A DNA stretch of 64,000 nt, from NCBI GenBank assembly GCA_965217865.1, contig CBDCJO010000002.1, positions 3,616,001 to 3,680,000 on the forward strand. Direction: 5' to 3'. The stretch comes from Candidatus Latescibacterota bacterium (lineage in GTDB: Bacteria; Latescibacterota; UBA2968; SICM01). Position 1 is the stretch's first letter, and each line of letters starts with the position of its first letter. The notes beneath the pieces were generated by a model. That model did no database searches, had not been told where the DNA came from, and saw only the letters and a list, made by a program, of their open reading frames with translations. The position numbers and the translations under genes are program-made. Shown piece after piece: positions 22,384-31,462 of this stretch.

Positions 22384-22519
22384 ACGAATCACGAATCACG
22401 AATCACGAATCACGAATCACGAATCACGAATCACGAATCACGAATCACGAATCACGAATCACGAATCACGAATCACGAATCACGAATCACGAATCACGAA
22501 TCACGAATCACGAATCACG
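22384..22519. repeat. Perfect heptamer array (ACGAATC)19
   Basis: 19 exact units 22384-22516 plus ACG. Confidence 0.97.
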
Positions 22520-22532
22520 GGGGGGAAATCGA

Positions 22533-23471: not shown

Positions 23472-24289
23472 TTACCGGATTTTTGCTGCAAAGGAATTGG
23501 GGCCAGGCTCCCTTCCCTCAAGGAAGTAGGGGAACGGGTTTACCCAACGACCGTCTCGTTTTATGCCGTAATGGAGATGCGGCGCCGTCACCCTTCCGGT
23601 TCTGCCCAGGTACCCGATGATCTGACCCCGTTTGACCCGATCCCCACGTCTCACGGAAAATCTCTGAAGGTGCGCGTAGACGGACTCAAGTCCATATTTG
23701 TGATCGATGAGGATATAGTTTCCGAAATTACCGTCTTTTCGACGCACTGAGACTTTTCCGTCCGCTGTGGCAATCACAGGTGTCCCGATTCTGTTGCAGA
23801 TGTCGACCCCGCGGTGCATATGGAGGGCGCCGGTGAAGGGATCCCGGCGGCGGCCGAATCGGGATGAGATCCACGAGTCTGGGCGAGGTACCGGAGATAT
23901 CGATGGGGTATGGTTTCGGATTATCGATATCATTCTCCAGCACATCGCCGATCTCATAGAAACTGCCCTTTAACCGTCTGGCTTCTTGAAGAAGGTGGTC
24001 CATGTCCAGGCGTGCCCGGTGAATCCCCGGGGTGGGGGGACTCTCCGGGATCGGATGCACGACAATAGAGGCCCTGGGTTGGAGGTTGGCCATCTGGAGC
24101 AGCTTATCTTCGCTTGAAACGAGGTACTTCATCTCCTCACGTAAATCGGCCAGTTCTGTAGCCAGATCTTCCAAACGCCCGGACAAAACCCGATTTTCGA
24201 TTTCGAGCATCACGAACCGGGTAATCCAGATCGGGGGATATCAGGCAAATGGTCCCAATCCATATTCGACCCAATCCACTAAACCGCAT
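23472..24289 (-). pseudogene. M23 family metallopeptidase with two frameshifts (~24235, ~23925)
   Basis: HRGVD, YAHL, PHLHY motifs; coiled-coil N-terminus in other frames; ATG 24289 with ggagg RBS. Confidence 0.8.
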
Positions 24290-24677
24290 AGGCCTCCTAT
24301 AGCATGCTGAACTAACGGAGGGGAAAGCCGGAGGGGGGATTGAACGGCGATATCGTAATTGGGGAGAAAAGGGACGATCGAGGAAGGTCCCGGCCAGCCG
24401 GGGTTGTTTTTGATTATAAATCAGTGTTTAAACAAATCGTTATATAATATATATGATCATTCCGCTTTCAAGTCAAGTATTTATCTGCTCTGAAACCAGG
24501 ACGGAATAGCCGGGGATCGTGGTTCGTGGATCGGAAAAGCCGTGGATCGTGGTTCGTGGATCGGGGATCGGGAAAGCCGTGGATCGTGGTTTGTTTGATC
24601 GGGGTTCGGAAAAGCCACTAATCTGAATCCATTCAAAAACCTTTGACTATTCCTCAAAAAATTCGCATCGATTTTTA

Positions 24678-24876
24678 ACGAATCACGAATCACGAATCAC
24701 GAATCACGAATCACGAATCACGAATCACGAATCACGAATCACGAATCACGAATCACGAATCACGAATCACGAATCACGAATCACGAATCACGAATCACGA
24801 ATCACGAATCACGAATCACGAATCACGAATCACGAATCACGAATCACGAATCACGAATCACGAATCACGAATCACG
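24678..24876. repeat. Perfect heptamer array (ACGAATC)28
   Basis: 28 exact units 24678-24873 plus ACG, ending 3 bp from the stop codon of the gene at 24880. Confidence 0.97.
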
Positions 24877-24879
24877 GAC

Positions 24880-25755
24880 TCATGTAGAATCAGGATATTT
24901 CCTTCCTCCCTGTTTTGCCCCGGCAATCTCGTGCCAATCGTATACCTTTCGGATTCTGAGGTTGTATGAAAACATTGCTTCCAACAACTGGTGATCGATC
25001 TTCAGTTCGCGACATCGACCGATAATCGCGCCCAGGTCCTTGGGGAAACATTTCCCACCGAATCCTCTTTCGGTGGTGACATTCAAGTGGCTCGGTCCGA
25101 TTCTTTTGTCAATCGCTACCGCTTCTTTGACATCGTCATAGCTTACCTCTTCTGCGTGGCAGATATCGTAAAAGATGTTCGAGATGGCGACTTTCGCGGC
25201 AAGCATCACATTACACTGGTACTTTACGATCTCTGCAGCAGCACTGCTCATCCGGACGATTCGTGTGGTTGGGAAACAGGTTCGATAGAGGTCGATTACC
25301 TTTTGCCCAATCCAGTCGTTGTCAGCTCCTACGACGGTTCGATCTGCGTTGATGAAATCCTCCAGGTAATTCGCCTCCGTGAGGAACTCGGGATTGAACG
25401 CAAAGGGGACCTCGGGATATGTGTTGGAATATCGACGTGTCGTACCCGGGACGACGGTGGATTTAATGACAACCGGTTTTCCTTGACCCGCGATACGGGG
25501 ACAGATCTCCTCCATCATCCGATCACATATGGACAGATCTATACGGAGTTCTTCTTCGTGAAATGGGGTGGGGAGACAGATGAAGATCAATTCGCTTTGG
25601 TCCAGTACGACATCCAGTTCATCGCTCTGTTTATATTTGTCGTAGATGAGGATCTTGTGTTTGGGCTCTTTGCCCCGCTCTCGATCGCGGTCTGCAAAGC
25701 CGTAGGCCACCGCTCTTCCAACAAAACCGTTCCCGATAATACCGATTGTACTCAT
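24880..25755 (-). CDS. UDP-glucose/GDP-mannose dehydrogenase family protein (short form, no C-terminal domain)
   Basis: GNGFVG, CLPTP, KSTVVPGT, NPEFL, GFGGKCFPKD. Confidence 0.88.
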   Translation of the reverse strand: MSTIGIIGNGFVGRAVAYGFADRDRERGKEPKHKILIYDKYKQSDELDVVLDQSELIFICLPTPFHEEELRIDLSICDRMMEEICPRIAGQGKPVVIKSTVVPGTTRRYSNTYPEVPFAFNPEFLTEANYLEDFINADRTVVGADNDWIGQKVIDLYRTCFPTTRIVRMSSAAAEIVKYQCNVMLAAKVAISNIFYDICHAEEVSYDDVKEAVAIDKRIGPSHLNVTTERGFGGKCFPKDLGAIIGRCRELKIDHQLLEAMFSYNLRIRKVYDWHEIAGAKQGGRKYPDST

Positions 25756-25804
25756 ATCCTGGCTATCTCCACGAAAATCACTGAATTTGATTCTCTCCTG
25801 AACC

Positions 25805-27160
25805 TTATAACTTTACAATTTTTCCCTCTCCATCGCTTACGCCCTTAGTGGCGTTTCGTGTATCCACAATGCACCTGGCGTGTGTCACAAGCCAGGAATA
25901 GTCGTGCATGCTGTGATTTGTCACGATAACAACGCAGTCTGAGGAGGCTATTGTTTTCTTATCCAGGGAAACGGACCGGAGCAGTTCGCCATCAACAGTG
26001 ATTTCATCGATATAAGGATCGTGAAAAGAGATGTTTACACCTTTTTTCATCAGAATTTCGATGACTTCCAGGGCCGGAGACTCCCGAATATCAGCCACAT
26101 CCGGTTTGTAGGTGACCCCCAGGACAAGGATTGACGATCCTTTGAGGCTCCGTTCGAACCGGTTGAGCGCATCCCCCACCTTGGACACGACGTAGGCGGG
26201 CATACCCCGTGTCACCTCACTGGCAAGCTCGATAAATCGGGAGTTGAAATTGAGGCCTCGGAGTTTCCAGGCCAGGAAGTGGGGATCAACCGGGATGCAA
26301 TGTCCCCCCAGACCCGGCCCGGGATAAAAGGGCAAGAAGCCGAACGGTTTTGTCGCGGCCGCATCGATCACTTCCCAGACGTTGATCCCAAGCCGATCGC
26401 ACATCAGAGCCACCTCGTTTACCAGCGCGATGTTCACGCTGCGAAACGTATTCTCCAACATCTTCACCATCTCGGCTGCCTGTGAGGATGAGACCGGTAC
26501 AACCTCTGAGATGAACTGCGTGTAGAACAAGACACCCATCTCTGTGCAGGCCGGAGTTATCCCACCCACCACTTTCGGTGTGTTCTTCAGGGTGTGGACC
26601 TGATTTCCGGGGTCCACCCGCTCCGGAGAAAAGGCCAGAAAGAAATCCTCTCCCGCCTTCAGGCCCTTTCCCTCAAGCAAGGGCAATACCAGTTCGTAGG
26701 TGGTGCCGGGATATGTTGTACTCTCCAGGATCACCAGCTTATCCGGATGGAAACGGGCGTGGATTTCTTCGAAGGCATTCATAATGAAGGAGACATCCGG
26801 ATCACGAGTCTTATTCAAGGGGGTGGGTACACAGACAACAATCACGTCCATCTGATCGATGACCGTGAAGTCCATAGTTATCTTGAACTTCCCGACTGCT
26901 TTCATCCCTGCAACCTCGAAATCCGGCACCCCCTGGACATCCGAATTGCCTGCGTCGAGCCGAGATACCTTTTCGGGGGAGGTATCCACGCCCGTCACCT
27001 CAAACCCGGCTTTCCCCAGCTCCACCGCCAGGGGCAGGCCCACGTATCCCAGGCCGACGACGGCTACCTTTGCCGATCGAGTTTGGATCTTTTCACGCAG
27101 TTTCGAGGGATCCGATTCCATAATCTTTTTACCATGTCTTGATAAACTATCTTGATTCAT
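25805..27160 (-). CDS. Nucleotide-sugar dehydrogenase (UDP-GlcNAc 6-dehydrogenase, WbpA-like)
   Basis: GLGYVGLPLA, ESTTYPGTT, FSPERVDPGN, GLGGHCIPVDP. Confidence 0.9.
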   Translation of the reverse strand: MNQDSLSRHGKKIMESDPSKLREKIQTRSAKVAVVGLGYVGLPLAVELGKAGFEVTGVDTSPEKVSRLDAGNSDVQGVPDFEVAGMKAVGKFKITMDFTVIDQMDVIVVCVPTPLNKTRDPDVSFIMNAFEEIHARFHPDKLVILESTTYPGTTYELVLPLLEGKGLKAGEDFFLAFSPERVDPGNQVHTLKNTPKVVGGITPACTEMGVLFYTQFISEVVPVSSSQAAEMVKMLENTFRSVNIALVNEVALMCDRLGINVWEVIDAAATKPFGFLPFYPGPGLGGHCIPVDPHFLAWKLRGLNFNSRFIELASEVTRGMPAYVVSKVGDALNRFERSLKGSSILVLGVTYKPDVADIRESPALEVIEILMKKGVNISFHDPYIDEITVDGELLRSVSLDKKTIASSDCVVIVTNHSMHDYSWLVTHARCIVDTRNATKGVSDGEGKIVKL

Positions 27161-27184: not shown

Positions 27185-27754
27185 TCAAGACTTAGTTGGA
27201 GTGGGATTTTGATTCAACGCGGTGTAACACTCGGGCTTTAAGACACCTACAAAAGGCAGATTCCGATATTGCTGATTGAAGTCGAGACCATAACCGACCA
27301 CAAATTCGTCGGGGATGGTGAACCCGCAGTATTCGATCGGAATCTCGATAGCACGGGTGGCGGGTTTGTCAATGAGAGTACACACCTTAAGACTTTTAGG
27401 CCCACGGGCGTTGAGGCTTCGAAGCAGGTAGTTCAATGTGAGACCCGTGTCTATGATTCCCTCGACGATTAGGACGTGACGTCCCGTGATGCTTATATCC
27501 AGATCTTTGAGGATGCGTACGACACCGGAACTCTGTGTAGACTGGCCATAACTGGAAATGGCCATCGATTCGATTTCGACATGAATTGTTATTTCCCGAG
27601 ACAGGTCCGACAGAAAAAAGAGAGAACCTTTCAGGATACCGATGAGGACGATTGGCCCATCCAGGGCCCCGTAATCCTTAGAGATCTGCCTTCCCAGGGA
27701 TTTCACTTTTTCAAGGATGGCCTGGGGATCGATCAGGATCTTATGAATATCTTT
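27185..27754 (-). pseudogene. hpt: Hypoxanthine phosphoribosyltransferase, native start removed by IS1595
   Basis: ILKGS..FLSDL, ISSYG, VLIVEGIIDTGLT (Gly at the usual Asp), FVVGYGLD..YRNLP; frame runs into the IS terminal repeat at 27755. Confidence 0.85.
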
Positions 27755-28589
27755 GGTAATTAGGAAGATATTGGTACCAGATTCACCAGATATGAAGCAA
27801 TAATTGGGAAGAGATCCTCGTCTTCTTGGTTGAATCTGAACTCTGTTTCCTTCAGGTATAAATGGAAATGATGTCGAGGGATTCCTCTGTATTGATATAG
27901 CCAATTTTTAGAAAAACTCCAGAAGCCTTCGATGCCATTGATGTGATGTCGGCCTTTGCCTTTGGGCACCCCTTCTTCTTTTCGAACAACCACGTGGTCA
28001 CCTTTGACTGACAGCCAAGTGTAGGCGTGCCAGTCATCGGTGTAGTATAGACTGCCTGCTTTGGTGTGTGAGGTCACAAGCGGTGTAAGGGTGTTTCGAC
28101 TTCGATCCGGAATGGGAAAGGTGAGGACTTTTCCGTTCCTCTGATAAAGCCCGAAAACCAAGTGTTTTCCGGCTGCTCCCCATCCACGCTTACCCTTATG
28201 ATGACCTCCATACATCGCCTCGTCCAACTCGATCTCACCCCAAAGCACCTGGTCCGTAAAGCTATGATCGTAGATGGCCTGGCGAAACGTGGTATAAATC
28301 CGCTGAGCCGTTTTCAGCGATACGGACAGGTAGTGCCTGGATCGGTAAGAGGGCACTCCCAATACAAACAGATAAAGTAAATGGGCAAGCTCGTCAAATG
28401 AAATTCGAAGCCTTTCAAGATAAGTGCCCGTGAAATCTTTAAACCGATATCCACACCGTGAACACCTGAACCGATCGTCTTTTAATAAGGGCAACCTGCG
28501 CTGATAATCGCAGCTTGGACATCGCCTTTTTCCACCCCAACGGGCTGCACGAAAATAGGCCCTACTTATCTTGCAGTCATTTGCTAACT
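27755..28589 (-). mobile_element. IS1595-family element, left end deleted (transposase ORF 27760-28602)
   Basis: Near-identical to the copy at 53076-53972; right IR at 27755-27780; identity stops at 28589 so the left IR and native start are missing. Confidence 0.9.
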
Positions 28590-28684
28590 CTAAGCGCAGC
28601 AAACAGTTGTATTATAATATCTTATAAAAAAAGACGATCAAGTTATAAATTTACATCTGTTTTAAAAATATATTGAAAAACCGC

Positions 28685-28713
28685 TTGACATCCAAGGAAC
28701 AAATGATTATATT
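28685..28713 (+). promoter_or_regulatory. Sigma-70 promoter driving the putative ncRNA
   Basis: TTGACA 28685-28690, 17 bp, TATATT 28708-28713; predicted +1 at ~28720. Confidence 0.7.
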
Positions 28714-28720
28714 ATCTGAC

Positions 28721-28883
28721 GAACCCCAAGAGGTCCTAAAATTTCTCTGAAACGCGGGTCGGAAGGTTCTGGAACCTCCTCTCAGCTAAGTTGATCAAGG
28801 GTTAAAGCGAATCGAGTAAAGCTGAGGGCAAGACCGAAGGATGCAGAGAATTGATAAAGGTCACTTGGGGTTCACTGTTTTTT
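28721..28883 (+). ncRNA. Putative ~155-nt structured RNA of unrecognised family
   Basis: Nested stems GAACCCCAAG/CTTGGGGTTC, TTCTCTG/CAGAGAA, GGTC/GACC, CTCTCAGCT/AGCTGAGGG; G-U wobbles and A-rich loops favour the + strand; T-tract follows. Confidence 0.65.
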
Positions 28884-29843
28884 ATTCCCAACCATCTGAT
28901 TAAGGCCATACTTATTCAGCAGGTTGTGGAAATCCCTCCTGTAAAATATCCGCACGTTTACGTCAGGATAGAGCTTTTTCAACCGACGTAACTTGCGGTT
29001 TTTTTTGGTCACCAGGCTCTGCTTCAGGGTGGTCAATTCGATAAAGGTATCCGAATCGACCAGGTAGAAGTCGGGTGAGAATGCCTCCGTTACTCTCCCT
29101 TCCCCATCCCATTCCAGCGGAAACGTCTTCGGTTCGAATTCCCACTGTATTTGATAAAAATCCAGTATTCTTGCGAACTCCTCTTCGCTCGTGTTTGAAA
29201 AAGCCGGTTTTTTTCCGTTCGGGGAGGGTTGGGTAACTGTTCCCGGAGGTTCGGATCTCTCCGTTTCAGGGAGGTGAACCGTCAGGGACCGCTGACCGAC
29301 GGCATTTACGATGATCTGGACGCAGGCCTGAACATCGAGCCGATCTGTGGAAAGGATGATATCATAGAGAAGGGGGTCATCGATCTTCCGACCATAGAGG
29401 GACTGGATGAAGCGGGCTTGATTCCGTTCCGCTTCCCTTAATGATTCAAGGGCGTGTTCTCGATCGGGTCCCAGCACATCAATCGTCCGTGACATACGGG
29501 TTTCTTCGAAGGCGAAGAATCGGACGTGGAGCGCATCCTGAAAATCCTGGAAGATACACTGGCCACCCCGTCCCAGGAGGATGAAATTCTCCTTCTCCGA
29601 CTTGTCCCTTATGAAAGAGTCGACGAGGTCAAGATAGAGCTTCCGATCGGAGAGGAGCCTTTCCCAGAATGAAGGGGCACGTTCCTGGATCTGGTCCAGA
29701 TCCCCTTCGTCCAGGCCGTATTCCAGGACCAGATGTTCCAGGCCCTTTCGATCGATGAGTACAAACCCAAGCCTTTCAGAAAGGGATTGGGCAACCTCTT
29801 CTCCGTTGCTTCCGAGTTGTCGGGAGATGGTGATGACGGCCAT
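28872..29843 (-). CDS. Cytidylate-kinase-like domain fused to a PD-(D/E)xK-like nuclease domain
   Basis: ITISRQLGSNG, LGRGG, YDIILST (cytidylate kinase-like family); C-terminal SEEEFARILD..WEFEP..FSPDFYL..FIELTT. Confidence 0.75.
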   Translation of the reverse strand: MAVITISRQLGSNGEEVAQSLSERLGFVLIDRKGLEHLVLEYGLDEGDLDQIQERAPSFWERLLSDRKLYLDLVDSFIRDKSEKENFILLGRGGQCIFQDFQDALHVRFFAFEETRMSRTIDVLGPDREHALESLREAERNQARFIQSLYGRKIDDPLLYDIILSTDRLDVQACVQIIVNAVGQRSLTVHLPETERSEPPGTVTQPSPNGKKPAFSNTSEEEFARILDFYQIQWEFEPKTFPLEWDGEGRVTEAFSPDFYLVDSDTFIELTTLKQSLVTKKNRKLRRLKKLYPDVNVRIFYRRDFHNLLNKYGLNQMVGNKKQ

Positions 29844-29893
29844 TGCAAGCCAGAAGGGAGGAACTTCTCAAGAGGATAAAGAAAAACTGATCT

Positions 29894-29922
29894 AAGATAG
29901 AGGAATGACAAGAGGTTGTCAA
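29894..29922 (-). promoter_or_regulatory. Sigma-70 promoter with palindromic operator TGACAA-N4-TTGTCA (29906-29921)
   Basis: Minus strand TTGACA-17-TATCTT; the palindrome overlaps the -35. Confidence 0.6.
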
Positions 29923-30953: not shown

Positions 30954-31462
30954 TTACTGAGCCCGAGATGCGACCGCATCTTCCTCCCCCAGGTCTCTAT
31001 CCATGAGGAAGAGCGCGTTTCCATCATCACCGACGAGTTTTAGTTTATGGACGATTTTCCTTGTGATCGCCTCCTCCTCCACCTGCTCGATGACGAACCA
31101 CTGCATGGAAGCGTTTGTGGCGTGGTCGTGTTCTTAACGGCCAGATCGACCAACTTGTTGATCTGGGCGGTTACTTCTTTCTCGTGTTCGTAGGCATTTT
31201 CGAATGCGGCAAGGGGGCTTTCCCACTTCATGGGAGGGGCTTCTATGGACCGGAGCTCGATTTTACCGTCCCTTTCGTTGATGAAATCGTAAATCCTCAT
31301 TGCGTGTTCCAGCTCTTCTCGGGCCTGGATGCGCATCCAGTGCGCAAAACCGTTCAGGTCCCGTGTCTGGAAATAAGCGGACATTCCTAGGTAGAGAAAG
31401 GCCGCGTAGAACTCGGCATTGAGCTGGTCGTTCAAAGCTGGCTGAACTTTATCGCTGACCAT
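30954..31462 (-). pseudogene. ftnA: Non-heme ferritin with a frameshift at ~31133
   Basis: LNDQLNAEFYAAFLY, EELEHAM, YEHE; DHAT..QWFVIEQVEEE continues in another frame. Confidence 0.85.

Follow-up and report, generated by a model that had tools for sequence, protein, structure and literature searches.

The DNA analysed here is a 64,000-nucleotide stretch (the window) of a Candidatus Latescibacterota genome (assembly GCA_965217865.1, contig CBDCJO010000002.1), and positions 27,185 to 29,922 of it hold three genes that travel together across phyla: a fusion gene that joins a cytidylate-kinase-like domain to a nuclease-fold domain of the PD-(D/E)xK type, an hpt gene and, between them, a gene for a structured noncoding RNA (Table 1). 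The multi-phylum module is real and lies outside every catalogued family, and an undescribed RNA is its third part. An initial annotation, made by a model from the sequence alone, had taken hpt to be the next host gene after the fusion; hpt is indeed there, with a truncated IS1595 element and a plus-strand RNA gene in between, the latter of which had gone unnoticed. The 276 nt that separate the fusion stop from this insertion sequence (IS) hold a plus-strand promoter and a hairpin, and the overlooked RNA gene is the most informative part of the locus. We found no description of the module or the RNA in the open-access literature; one might stand in RNA-motif catalogues published in subscription journals or as supplements. 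The comparisons below draw on 160 related loci, 80 from genomes (the best 80 of 592 confirmed genome matches) and 80 from metagenomes.

Table 1. Features of the locus, in window coordinates.
Feature	Position	Strand	Remark
Sigma70-type promoter of fusion gene, TTGACA-17-TATCTT	29894..29922	-	
Fusion gene, 323 aa: degenerate Cmk-like domain, linker, PD-(D/E)xK domain	29843-28872	-	
Cytidylate_kin2 (PF13189) domain, residues 3-167, Walker A SRQLGSNG without Lys	29343..29837	-	
T7-endonuclease-I-like PD-(D/E)xK domain, residues ~215-313	28905..29201	-	
Structured noncoding RNA gene, 155 nt, U-rich tract after closing stem	28720-28874	+	convergent with fusion gene
Sigma70-type promoter of RNA, TTGACA-17-TATATT, 11/12	28685..28713	+	
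Weak promoter-like site toward hpt, 9/12	28614..28641	-	candidate only
IS1595-family element, 57-nt left end absent compared with sister copies	27755-28594	-	outside module
hpt (HGPRTase), loop VEGIIDTG	27185..27754	-	native start replaced by IS end

The fusion protein

The N-terminal domain matches Pfam Cytidylate_kin2 with E 3e-31, and its nearest solved relatives are 3fdi and 3hdt. It had been described as a P-loop cytidylate-kinase-like domain, of which the kinase-like fold stands and the P-loop does not: a GK[ST] Walker A motif occurs in 0/114 fusion-length relatives, the lysine being missing in all of them, and we therefore regard the domain as degenerate. Its TIGR02173 score of 36 bits lies below the cut-off of 102. 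The domain is likely a nucleotide sensor. One genome (G310) holds 16 Cytidylate_kin2-like matches, the family being expanded in that class. The proline-rich linker of the initial annotation corresponds to a proline-containing stretch at residues ~190-214.

The C-terminal ~100 residues carry the motifs SEEEF..PDFYL..IELTT, and have no Pfam, NCBIfam or PADLOC family match. In the ESM Atlas they belong to clusters that carry no annotation and lie nearest, among named ones, to DUF790, phage endonuclease I and DUF1064 (leads under 0.9). Relatives fall into two length classes (1806 and 2483) with 60-70% identity across phyla, and the protein family comprises 3233 clusters at 50% identity (E<=0.001, distant relatives included). 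A structure model built from 71 sequences reached a predicted local distance difference test (pLDDT) score of 82.5, and the top rows returned for it by Foldseek and VIA were PD-(D/E)xK proteins, with Z from 8.0 (root-mean-square deviation 2.4, 79 aligned) to 6.0; none of the Foldseek rows reached E<=0.001. The model shows the alpha-beta-beta-beta-alpha-beta core of that superfamily. The structural matches included RAP-type mitoribosomal proteins, I-Bth0305I, Bax1, TnsA, Vsr and T7 endonuclease I, all with middling scores and no clear winner, the best being a RAP-type RNA-binding domain at Z 8.0. By profile, T7 endonuclease I alone among solved structures gave a significant match (E 3.9e-5), and PHROG endonuclease/resolvase matches were obtained for 71/71 sequences. 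Model, Foldseek and profile thus agree on the restriction-like fold that had been proposed from the motifs, and structure comparison, which had been named as the test that could overturn the proposal, places the domain among PD-(D/E)xK proteins.

T7 endonuclease I acts as a dimer that cleaves four-way DNA junctions. Residues E220, D258 and E269 coincide with its acidic ligands in the alignment and are the same in 120/120 relatives; T271, T272, Q275, K281, N282 and K284 are invariant as well. The threonine remarked on earlier at the usual catalytic-lysine position is present in 379/379 sequences, aligned to ETKG of T7 endonuclease I, and K281 and K284 are located in the helix that follows the threonine motif. 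By alignment, then, all three acidic metal ligands known from the T7 endonuclease I fold are retained, and threonine stands in for lysine. The T7 entries themselves read ETKG in 1m0d and ETAG in the DNA complex 2pfj, the latter a K67A form that presumably binds DNA without cutting it. In comparison with T7 endonuclease I (PF05367; 1m0d, 2pfj, 3cae), the present domain shares the small PD-(D/E)xK fold and aligns at FxSxxE, PD and E; it differs in having ExT for ExK, in scoring below the Pfam cut-off and in being chromosomal, tied to hpt and not found in phages (for background on the enzyme, see the available part of PMC10956419). Similarly, the COG4636/Tt1808 nucleases, represented by 1wdj among the Foldseek rows, are PD-(D/E)xK proteins without the motif lysine, which may have relocated, and the available part of PMC551604 offers them as a precedent for a migrated catalytic lysine. 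They proliferate as selfish genes, whereas the family here is single-copy and hpt-linked, and its lysine relocation is only putative.

To gauge which domains accompany the nuclease fold, 140 proteins were scanned (124 of 150 representatives plus 16 chosen ones). The partners were Cytidylate_kin2, HPRT, GAF plus HPRT, MerR HTH, PC4 and single oddities; the fusion partners are sensor or nucleic-acid-binding domains. Two proteins (P0351, P0368) are triple fusions of GAF, nuclease-fold and HPRT domains, one (P0317) carries a MerR HTH and another (P0259) has a C-terminal SMODS match.

Linkage to hpt

An hpt gene was present in 79 of the 80 genome loci and in 70 of the 80 metagenome loci, the remaining 10 being mostly short contigs. 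In 77/80 genome loci it was either fused to the domain gene (2) or lay <=400 nt downstream (75; <=60 nt in 56), and in Thermomicrobium roseum, for example, the direct fusion is encoded on a 918-kb plasmid. The linkage to hpt, on which the initial annotation had staked its case, is therefore borne out across genomes (77/80 and 70/80 loci), and the idea of a nucleotide-coupled module is upheld. Besides hpt and the Cmk-like gene, no neighbour was common to several phyla. A second hpt was found in 37 of 50 genomes tested from among the 80. A precedent for HPRT serving in a nucleic-acid-binding complex is TilS-HprT of Bacillus subtilis, where, according to the available part of PMC8152036, the HPRT gene overlaps its partner gene and the pair is a nucleic-acid-binding regulator; here, by contrast, a nuclease-fold domain is the partner, most linked Hpts are second paralogs and the locus includes an RNA gene.

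The window Hpt passes TIGR01203 with 207.8 bits against a cut-off of 150. Its phosphoribosyl pyrophosphate (PRPP) loop reads VEGIIDTG, with EG in place of the ED pair, as the initial annotation had recognized; as a trait of the module at large the unusual loop did not hold up, since the position is D in 71, G in 7 and A in 1 of 79 module Hpts, and D in 67/67 metagenome Hpts scored. The E-G loop is lineage-specific, although in the window's own phylum it accompanies the module: EG is found in the window and in both relatives that carry the module (3/3), and ED in 2/2 family relatives that lack it. Across 16 active-site positions, 47/81 linked Hpts showed a change and 23/81 showed >=3 changes, compared with 14/39 and 0/39 unlinked Hpts; much of this drift belongs to one Acidobacteria clade. 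Linked Hpts at several Acidobacteriota loci (L019, L024, L036 and others) share Y119F, K180R and Y205F/C, which suggests a changed ligand or a pseudo-enzyme, and the same loci have a diverged Cmk-like domain and no RNA that we could find.

In an Hpt tree made by a quick method, the linked Hpts form several lineage clades, with deep forks unsettled. The window Hpt and 13 Chloroflexota linked Hpts group with unlinked Hpts (SH 90), so the tree does not establish one common origin for the linked paralog. A complex predicted from two Hpt chains and the domain scored 0.62, one control scoring 0.43, and we use this result neither for nor against any interpretation. Cross-phylum identity was 59% for the domain versus 54% for Hpt.

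A structured RNA with its own promoter

The RNA is a separate unit that runs from its own promoter to a U-tract and is sometimes multiplied. The window RNA forms a hairpin with z -3.77. Conserved features are a 10-11 bp closing stem, a mismatch and then GGUC paired with GGUC (tandem wobble), flanked by a TTGACA box ~34 nt upstream and a U-rich tail, and the promoter spacing seen in the window recurs in related copies. Between constant ends lies a purine-rich rod with A-rich loops (117-471 nt; RNAs 54-68% purine) without a conserved open reading frame (ORF). Compensatory changes occur in 7/15 pairs of the closing stem, a level reached by 0/500 shuffles, the count being biased upward because the structure was read from the same sequences.

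Rfam returned no family match, and we accordingly rejected a riboswitch or any other Rfam identity. The RNA is not 6S, as there is no RF00013 match and a separate canonical 6S exists in 4/5 RNA-bearing genomes; nor is it likely to be a Y RNA, Ro60/TROVE being found in 0/5 RNA-bearing genomes, which are metagenome-assembled genomes (MAGs) and perhaps incomplete. As a separate observation, no Rfam 6S RNA was detected in 5/5 genomes of the window's own phylum (G000, G001, G002, G097, G127). Small RNAs that titrate proteins, such as CsrB/RsmZ, 6S and Y RNA, resemble the present RNA in that they have a promoter and terminator of their own, occur in several copies and combine conserved ends with a variable interior. 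The differences are the lack of an Rfam match, the canonical 6S elsewhere in four of the five genomes, the lack of Ro60 and the fact that no linked CsrA was seen.

The composition of the RNA also bears on a possible role in RNA turnover and salvage, in which the nuclease would cleave structured RNA into products that the Cmk-like domain and Hpt recycle or sense, and the hairpin RNA would be scaffold, substrate or purine store. The purine content, A-rich loops, length range and constant ends would suit such a role, as would the RAP-type RNA-binding domain as best structural match and the presence of apt after hpt in some Actinomycetota loci. We consider this explanation distinctly unlikely: the Walker A lysine is missing in 114/114 relatives, several linked Hpts have lost catalytic residues, none of the five RNA-bearing genomes has Ro60/TROVE and no other salvage genes are conserved nearby.

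Distribution of the RNA

The same RNA element occupies the same place in the two phylum relatives G127 and G097, and its ends recur at Desulfobacterota, Methylomirabilota, Bacillota and Anaerolineae loci, where its strand varies, as does its place: upstream of the genes, between them or downstream. Altogether the RNA adjoins 31/160 related loci (18 genome, 13 metagenome) in at least 5 phyla and 0/39 control loci with an unlinked hpt, counting hits with a score >=20 plus a promoter or U-tail; borderline rows L030, L067, L069, L185 and L218 were excluded, and L002 and L216, just under the shuffle maximum of 20.4, were kept for their promoter and tail. The RNA ends scored 42-64 bits at 15 loci, compared with a shuffle maximum of 21, and the covariance model matched 7/80 metagenome loci on which it had not been trained, each adjoining the domain, at E<1e-5. 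A strict sequence pattern found the window only. A loose promoter-plus-motif pattern matched all 50 genomes and the reversed control and was discarded as uninformative.

Genomes were searched with a shortened covariance model. In the window's own phylum the domain occurs in 3/168 genomes and strong RNA matches occur in the same 3 of 150, all three having trained the RNA model and two holding extra untrained copies; 21 other genomes gave weak RNA matches only (E 0.001-0.45). Of 121 genomes in the class of G089, 30 have both domain and RNA, 18 have the domain only, 4 have the RNA only and 69 have neither; 7 of the 30 double positives had trained the model. There the RNA accompanies 29/29 Cmk-length fusions and 1/19 short PC4-like forms, a split among related, non-independent genomes that may reflect two lineages.

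Some genomes contain up to 7-8 copies of the RNA, each with its own promoter and tail. Dispersed copies are 69-93% identical and keep the -35 box in 17/17 cases, which, together with the variable position and orientation, is the pattern of a trans-acting RNA. Near several dispersed copies (flanks of L280, L282, L285, L286 and L287) a non-coding stretch of 150-400 bp is repeated. Such dispersal might instead mean that the RNA is an independent or selfish hitchhiker and that the domain-Hpt pair works alone, the domain perhaps binding DNA structures as the partner of Hpt; multiple copies, some within shared repeated flanks, and the absence of the RNA from most loci alongside its occurrence in RNA-only genomes would be expected then. 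We think this unlikely, because the RNA adjoins the module in at least five phyla at differing positions and orientations, strong matches in the own phylum are confined to the three genomes with the domain, the copies retain promoter and stem, and no terminal-repeat or transposase signature was seen in the flanks inspected.

Genomic context and the question of defence

The initial annotation had likened the module to nucleotide-sensing defence or toxin systems, and the context does not support that. Searches of 50,697 phage records and of IMG/VR did not turn up the domain, and it appeared on a plasmid in one record. Neighbours that could be named by NCBIfam (77 ORFs) were housekeeping genes, such as those for RecG, ClpB/C, DinB, RNase HII, RimP, Apt and ABC transporters. 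The domain is present in one copy per genome and evolves very slowly, its cross-phylum identity exceeding that of Hpt. A PADLOC search, which the annotation had suggested, assigned 0 families to the window proteins, and other members of the domain family gave weak matches only (best E 1.6e-5). Among 145 neighbour ORFs from 32 loci, picked by a crude script, 20 matched PADLOC models in part (ABC, Clp, helicase, HEAT, macro, AAA), no control loci having been scanned; one LeoA-like dynamin neighbour is a possible defence gene.

The most specific form of the defence idea is an anti-phage system resembling AvcID and type III toxin-antitoxin pairs, in which the fusion toxin would be held by a labile, abundant RNA and freed when a phage stops transcription, with Hpt tuning or co-inhibiting it. 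The available parts of two reports (10.1101/2021.03.31.437871, PMC10511110) describe a shared logic for AvcID/DcdV-DifV of Vibrio cholerae: a P-loop-kinase-like domain with an effector, inhibited by an adjacent noncoding RNA of 171-300 nt, and a nucleotide theme. Here too the RNA gene stands next to the protein gene in the window and in 31/160 loci, has a strong promoter (11/12) and co-occurs with the Cmk-length fusions; E/D/E is invariant, with COG4636 as a precedent for a migrated lysine (PMC551604, available part); the module is patchy in its own phylum (3/168); and the domain has its weak PADLOC matches. Set against what those sources cover, the present effector is a nuclease fold and not a dCTP deaminase, the Walker A lysine is absent, an Hpt is the partner, the module lies off islands, and the RNA is antisense or downstream, multi-copy and missing at most loci. 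The last of these would be unlike an obligatory antitoxin. With the lack of phage or viral matches, the single plasmid record, the housekeeping neighbours (whose PADLOC matches are partial, generic and without a control set), the single copy per genome and the very slow evolution, we judge an AvcID-like function rather unlikely.

A candidate nucleotide-sensing regulator

Our tentative preference is that fusion, Hpt and hairpin RNA form a nucleotide-sensing host RNA-protein regulator in which the RNA binds and restrains the nuclease-fold protein. Hpt, with its purine/PRPP/IMP-GMP pocket, would report nucleotide status, as would the interchangeable N-terminal domain (degenerate Cmk-like, GAF, MerR HTH or PC4-like). 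The nuclease-fold domain may recognize structured nucleic acid and either bind it or cut it by means of one of the invariant helix lysines, and abundant RNA would titrate the protein through the conserved closing stem, as sponge RNAs do. We favour such a regulator over an AvcID-like toxin, a hitchhiking RNA or a turnover-salvage unit because of the slow evolution, the housekeeping contexts and an RNA that is absent from most lineages and multiplied in others.

Several observations weigh against it. The RNA was not found at 129/160 loci (Acidobacteriota, Armatimonadota, Actinomycetota, many Chloroflexota), nor by direct inspection at 19/19 short-form or truncated loci of the G089 class, and when 50 module genomes were searched whole with strict filters, those from Acidobacteriota, Armatimonadota, Actinomycetota and Chloroflexota had no strong match. 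Diverged RNAs could escape detection, so the RNA is either accessory or diverged beyond recognition; its apparent lack in most lineages makes an obligatory antitoxin improbable. Conversely, the four RNA-only genomes, incomplete MAGs, are without the domain. The kinship and training overlap noted above temper the co-occurrence counts. In the window genome and in G127 the linked hpt is the only one found, and the invariant metal ligands are more in keeping with an active nuclease than with a protein that only binds. We found neither an operator nor a target, and reads from four RNA sequencing runs, confined to the IS and 33 nt of hpt, were uninformative on module expression.

With slightly less assurance, the module could represent a new class of bacterial ribonucleoprotein in at least 5 phyla: an enzyme derived from a T7-endonuclease-I-like ancestor with a rebuilt active site, gated according to purine-nucleotide status by a repurposed HPRT and a kinase-like sensor, and buffered by an undescribed multi-copy small RNA. 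The locus pairs a so far undescribed multi-phylum noncoding RNA family with a specific candidate protein and places an unannotated protein family in a candidate pathway. If true, this would explain the second hpt of many environmental bacteria and would give HPRT a moonlighting role. The three-gene unit, at <2 kb, is directly testable.

Neighbouring elements

The fusion promoter had been credited with its own palindromic operator. The palindrome, TGACAA-N4-TTGTCA at 29906-29921, is present as described and occurs once in the genome (chance expectation 0.22); one of its arms is the -35 box of the promoter, it is absent from both phylum relatives with the module, and only loose matches exist in 3/160 loci, so that we rejected it as a conserved operator.

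In this assembly the first hpt codons are replaced by the truncated end of the IS1595-family element, and the 57-nt left end missing from this copy is carried by 12/13 other near-full copies. In both phylum relatives that carry the module the hpt start is free of an IS, which implies that few residues at most were lost and makes the IS incidental to the module; the junction may be genuine or a product of assembly. An 8-mer on contig C1 equal to the IS target duplication was set aside as chance, no hpt N-terminus lying beyond it. When whole, the element measures 897 bp and has a target duplication of 8 bp; the genome holds at least 14 near-full copies, and several copies have unmatched flanks (rearrangement or assembly).

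Directly downstream of hpt (24880-27160, minus strand) are two nucleotide-sugar dehydrogenase genes, one of which encodes 291 aa and is without the C-terminal UDP-binding domain. An M23 peptidase gene at 23472-24213 (minus strand) is apparently split into two frames, an N-terminal coiled part and the M23 domain, and a ferritin frame at 31040-31462 (minus strand) is broken after about residue 111, possibly by a frameshift. Short tandem repeats occur in intergenic DNA at ~22400-22530 and ~24500-24690, with an ITNHESR-type heptad in one frame.

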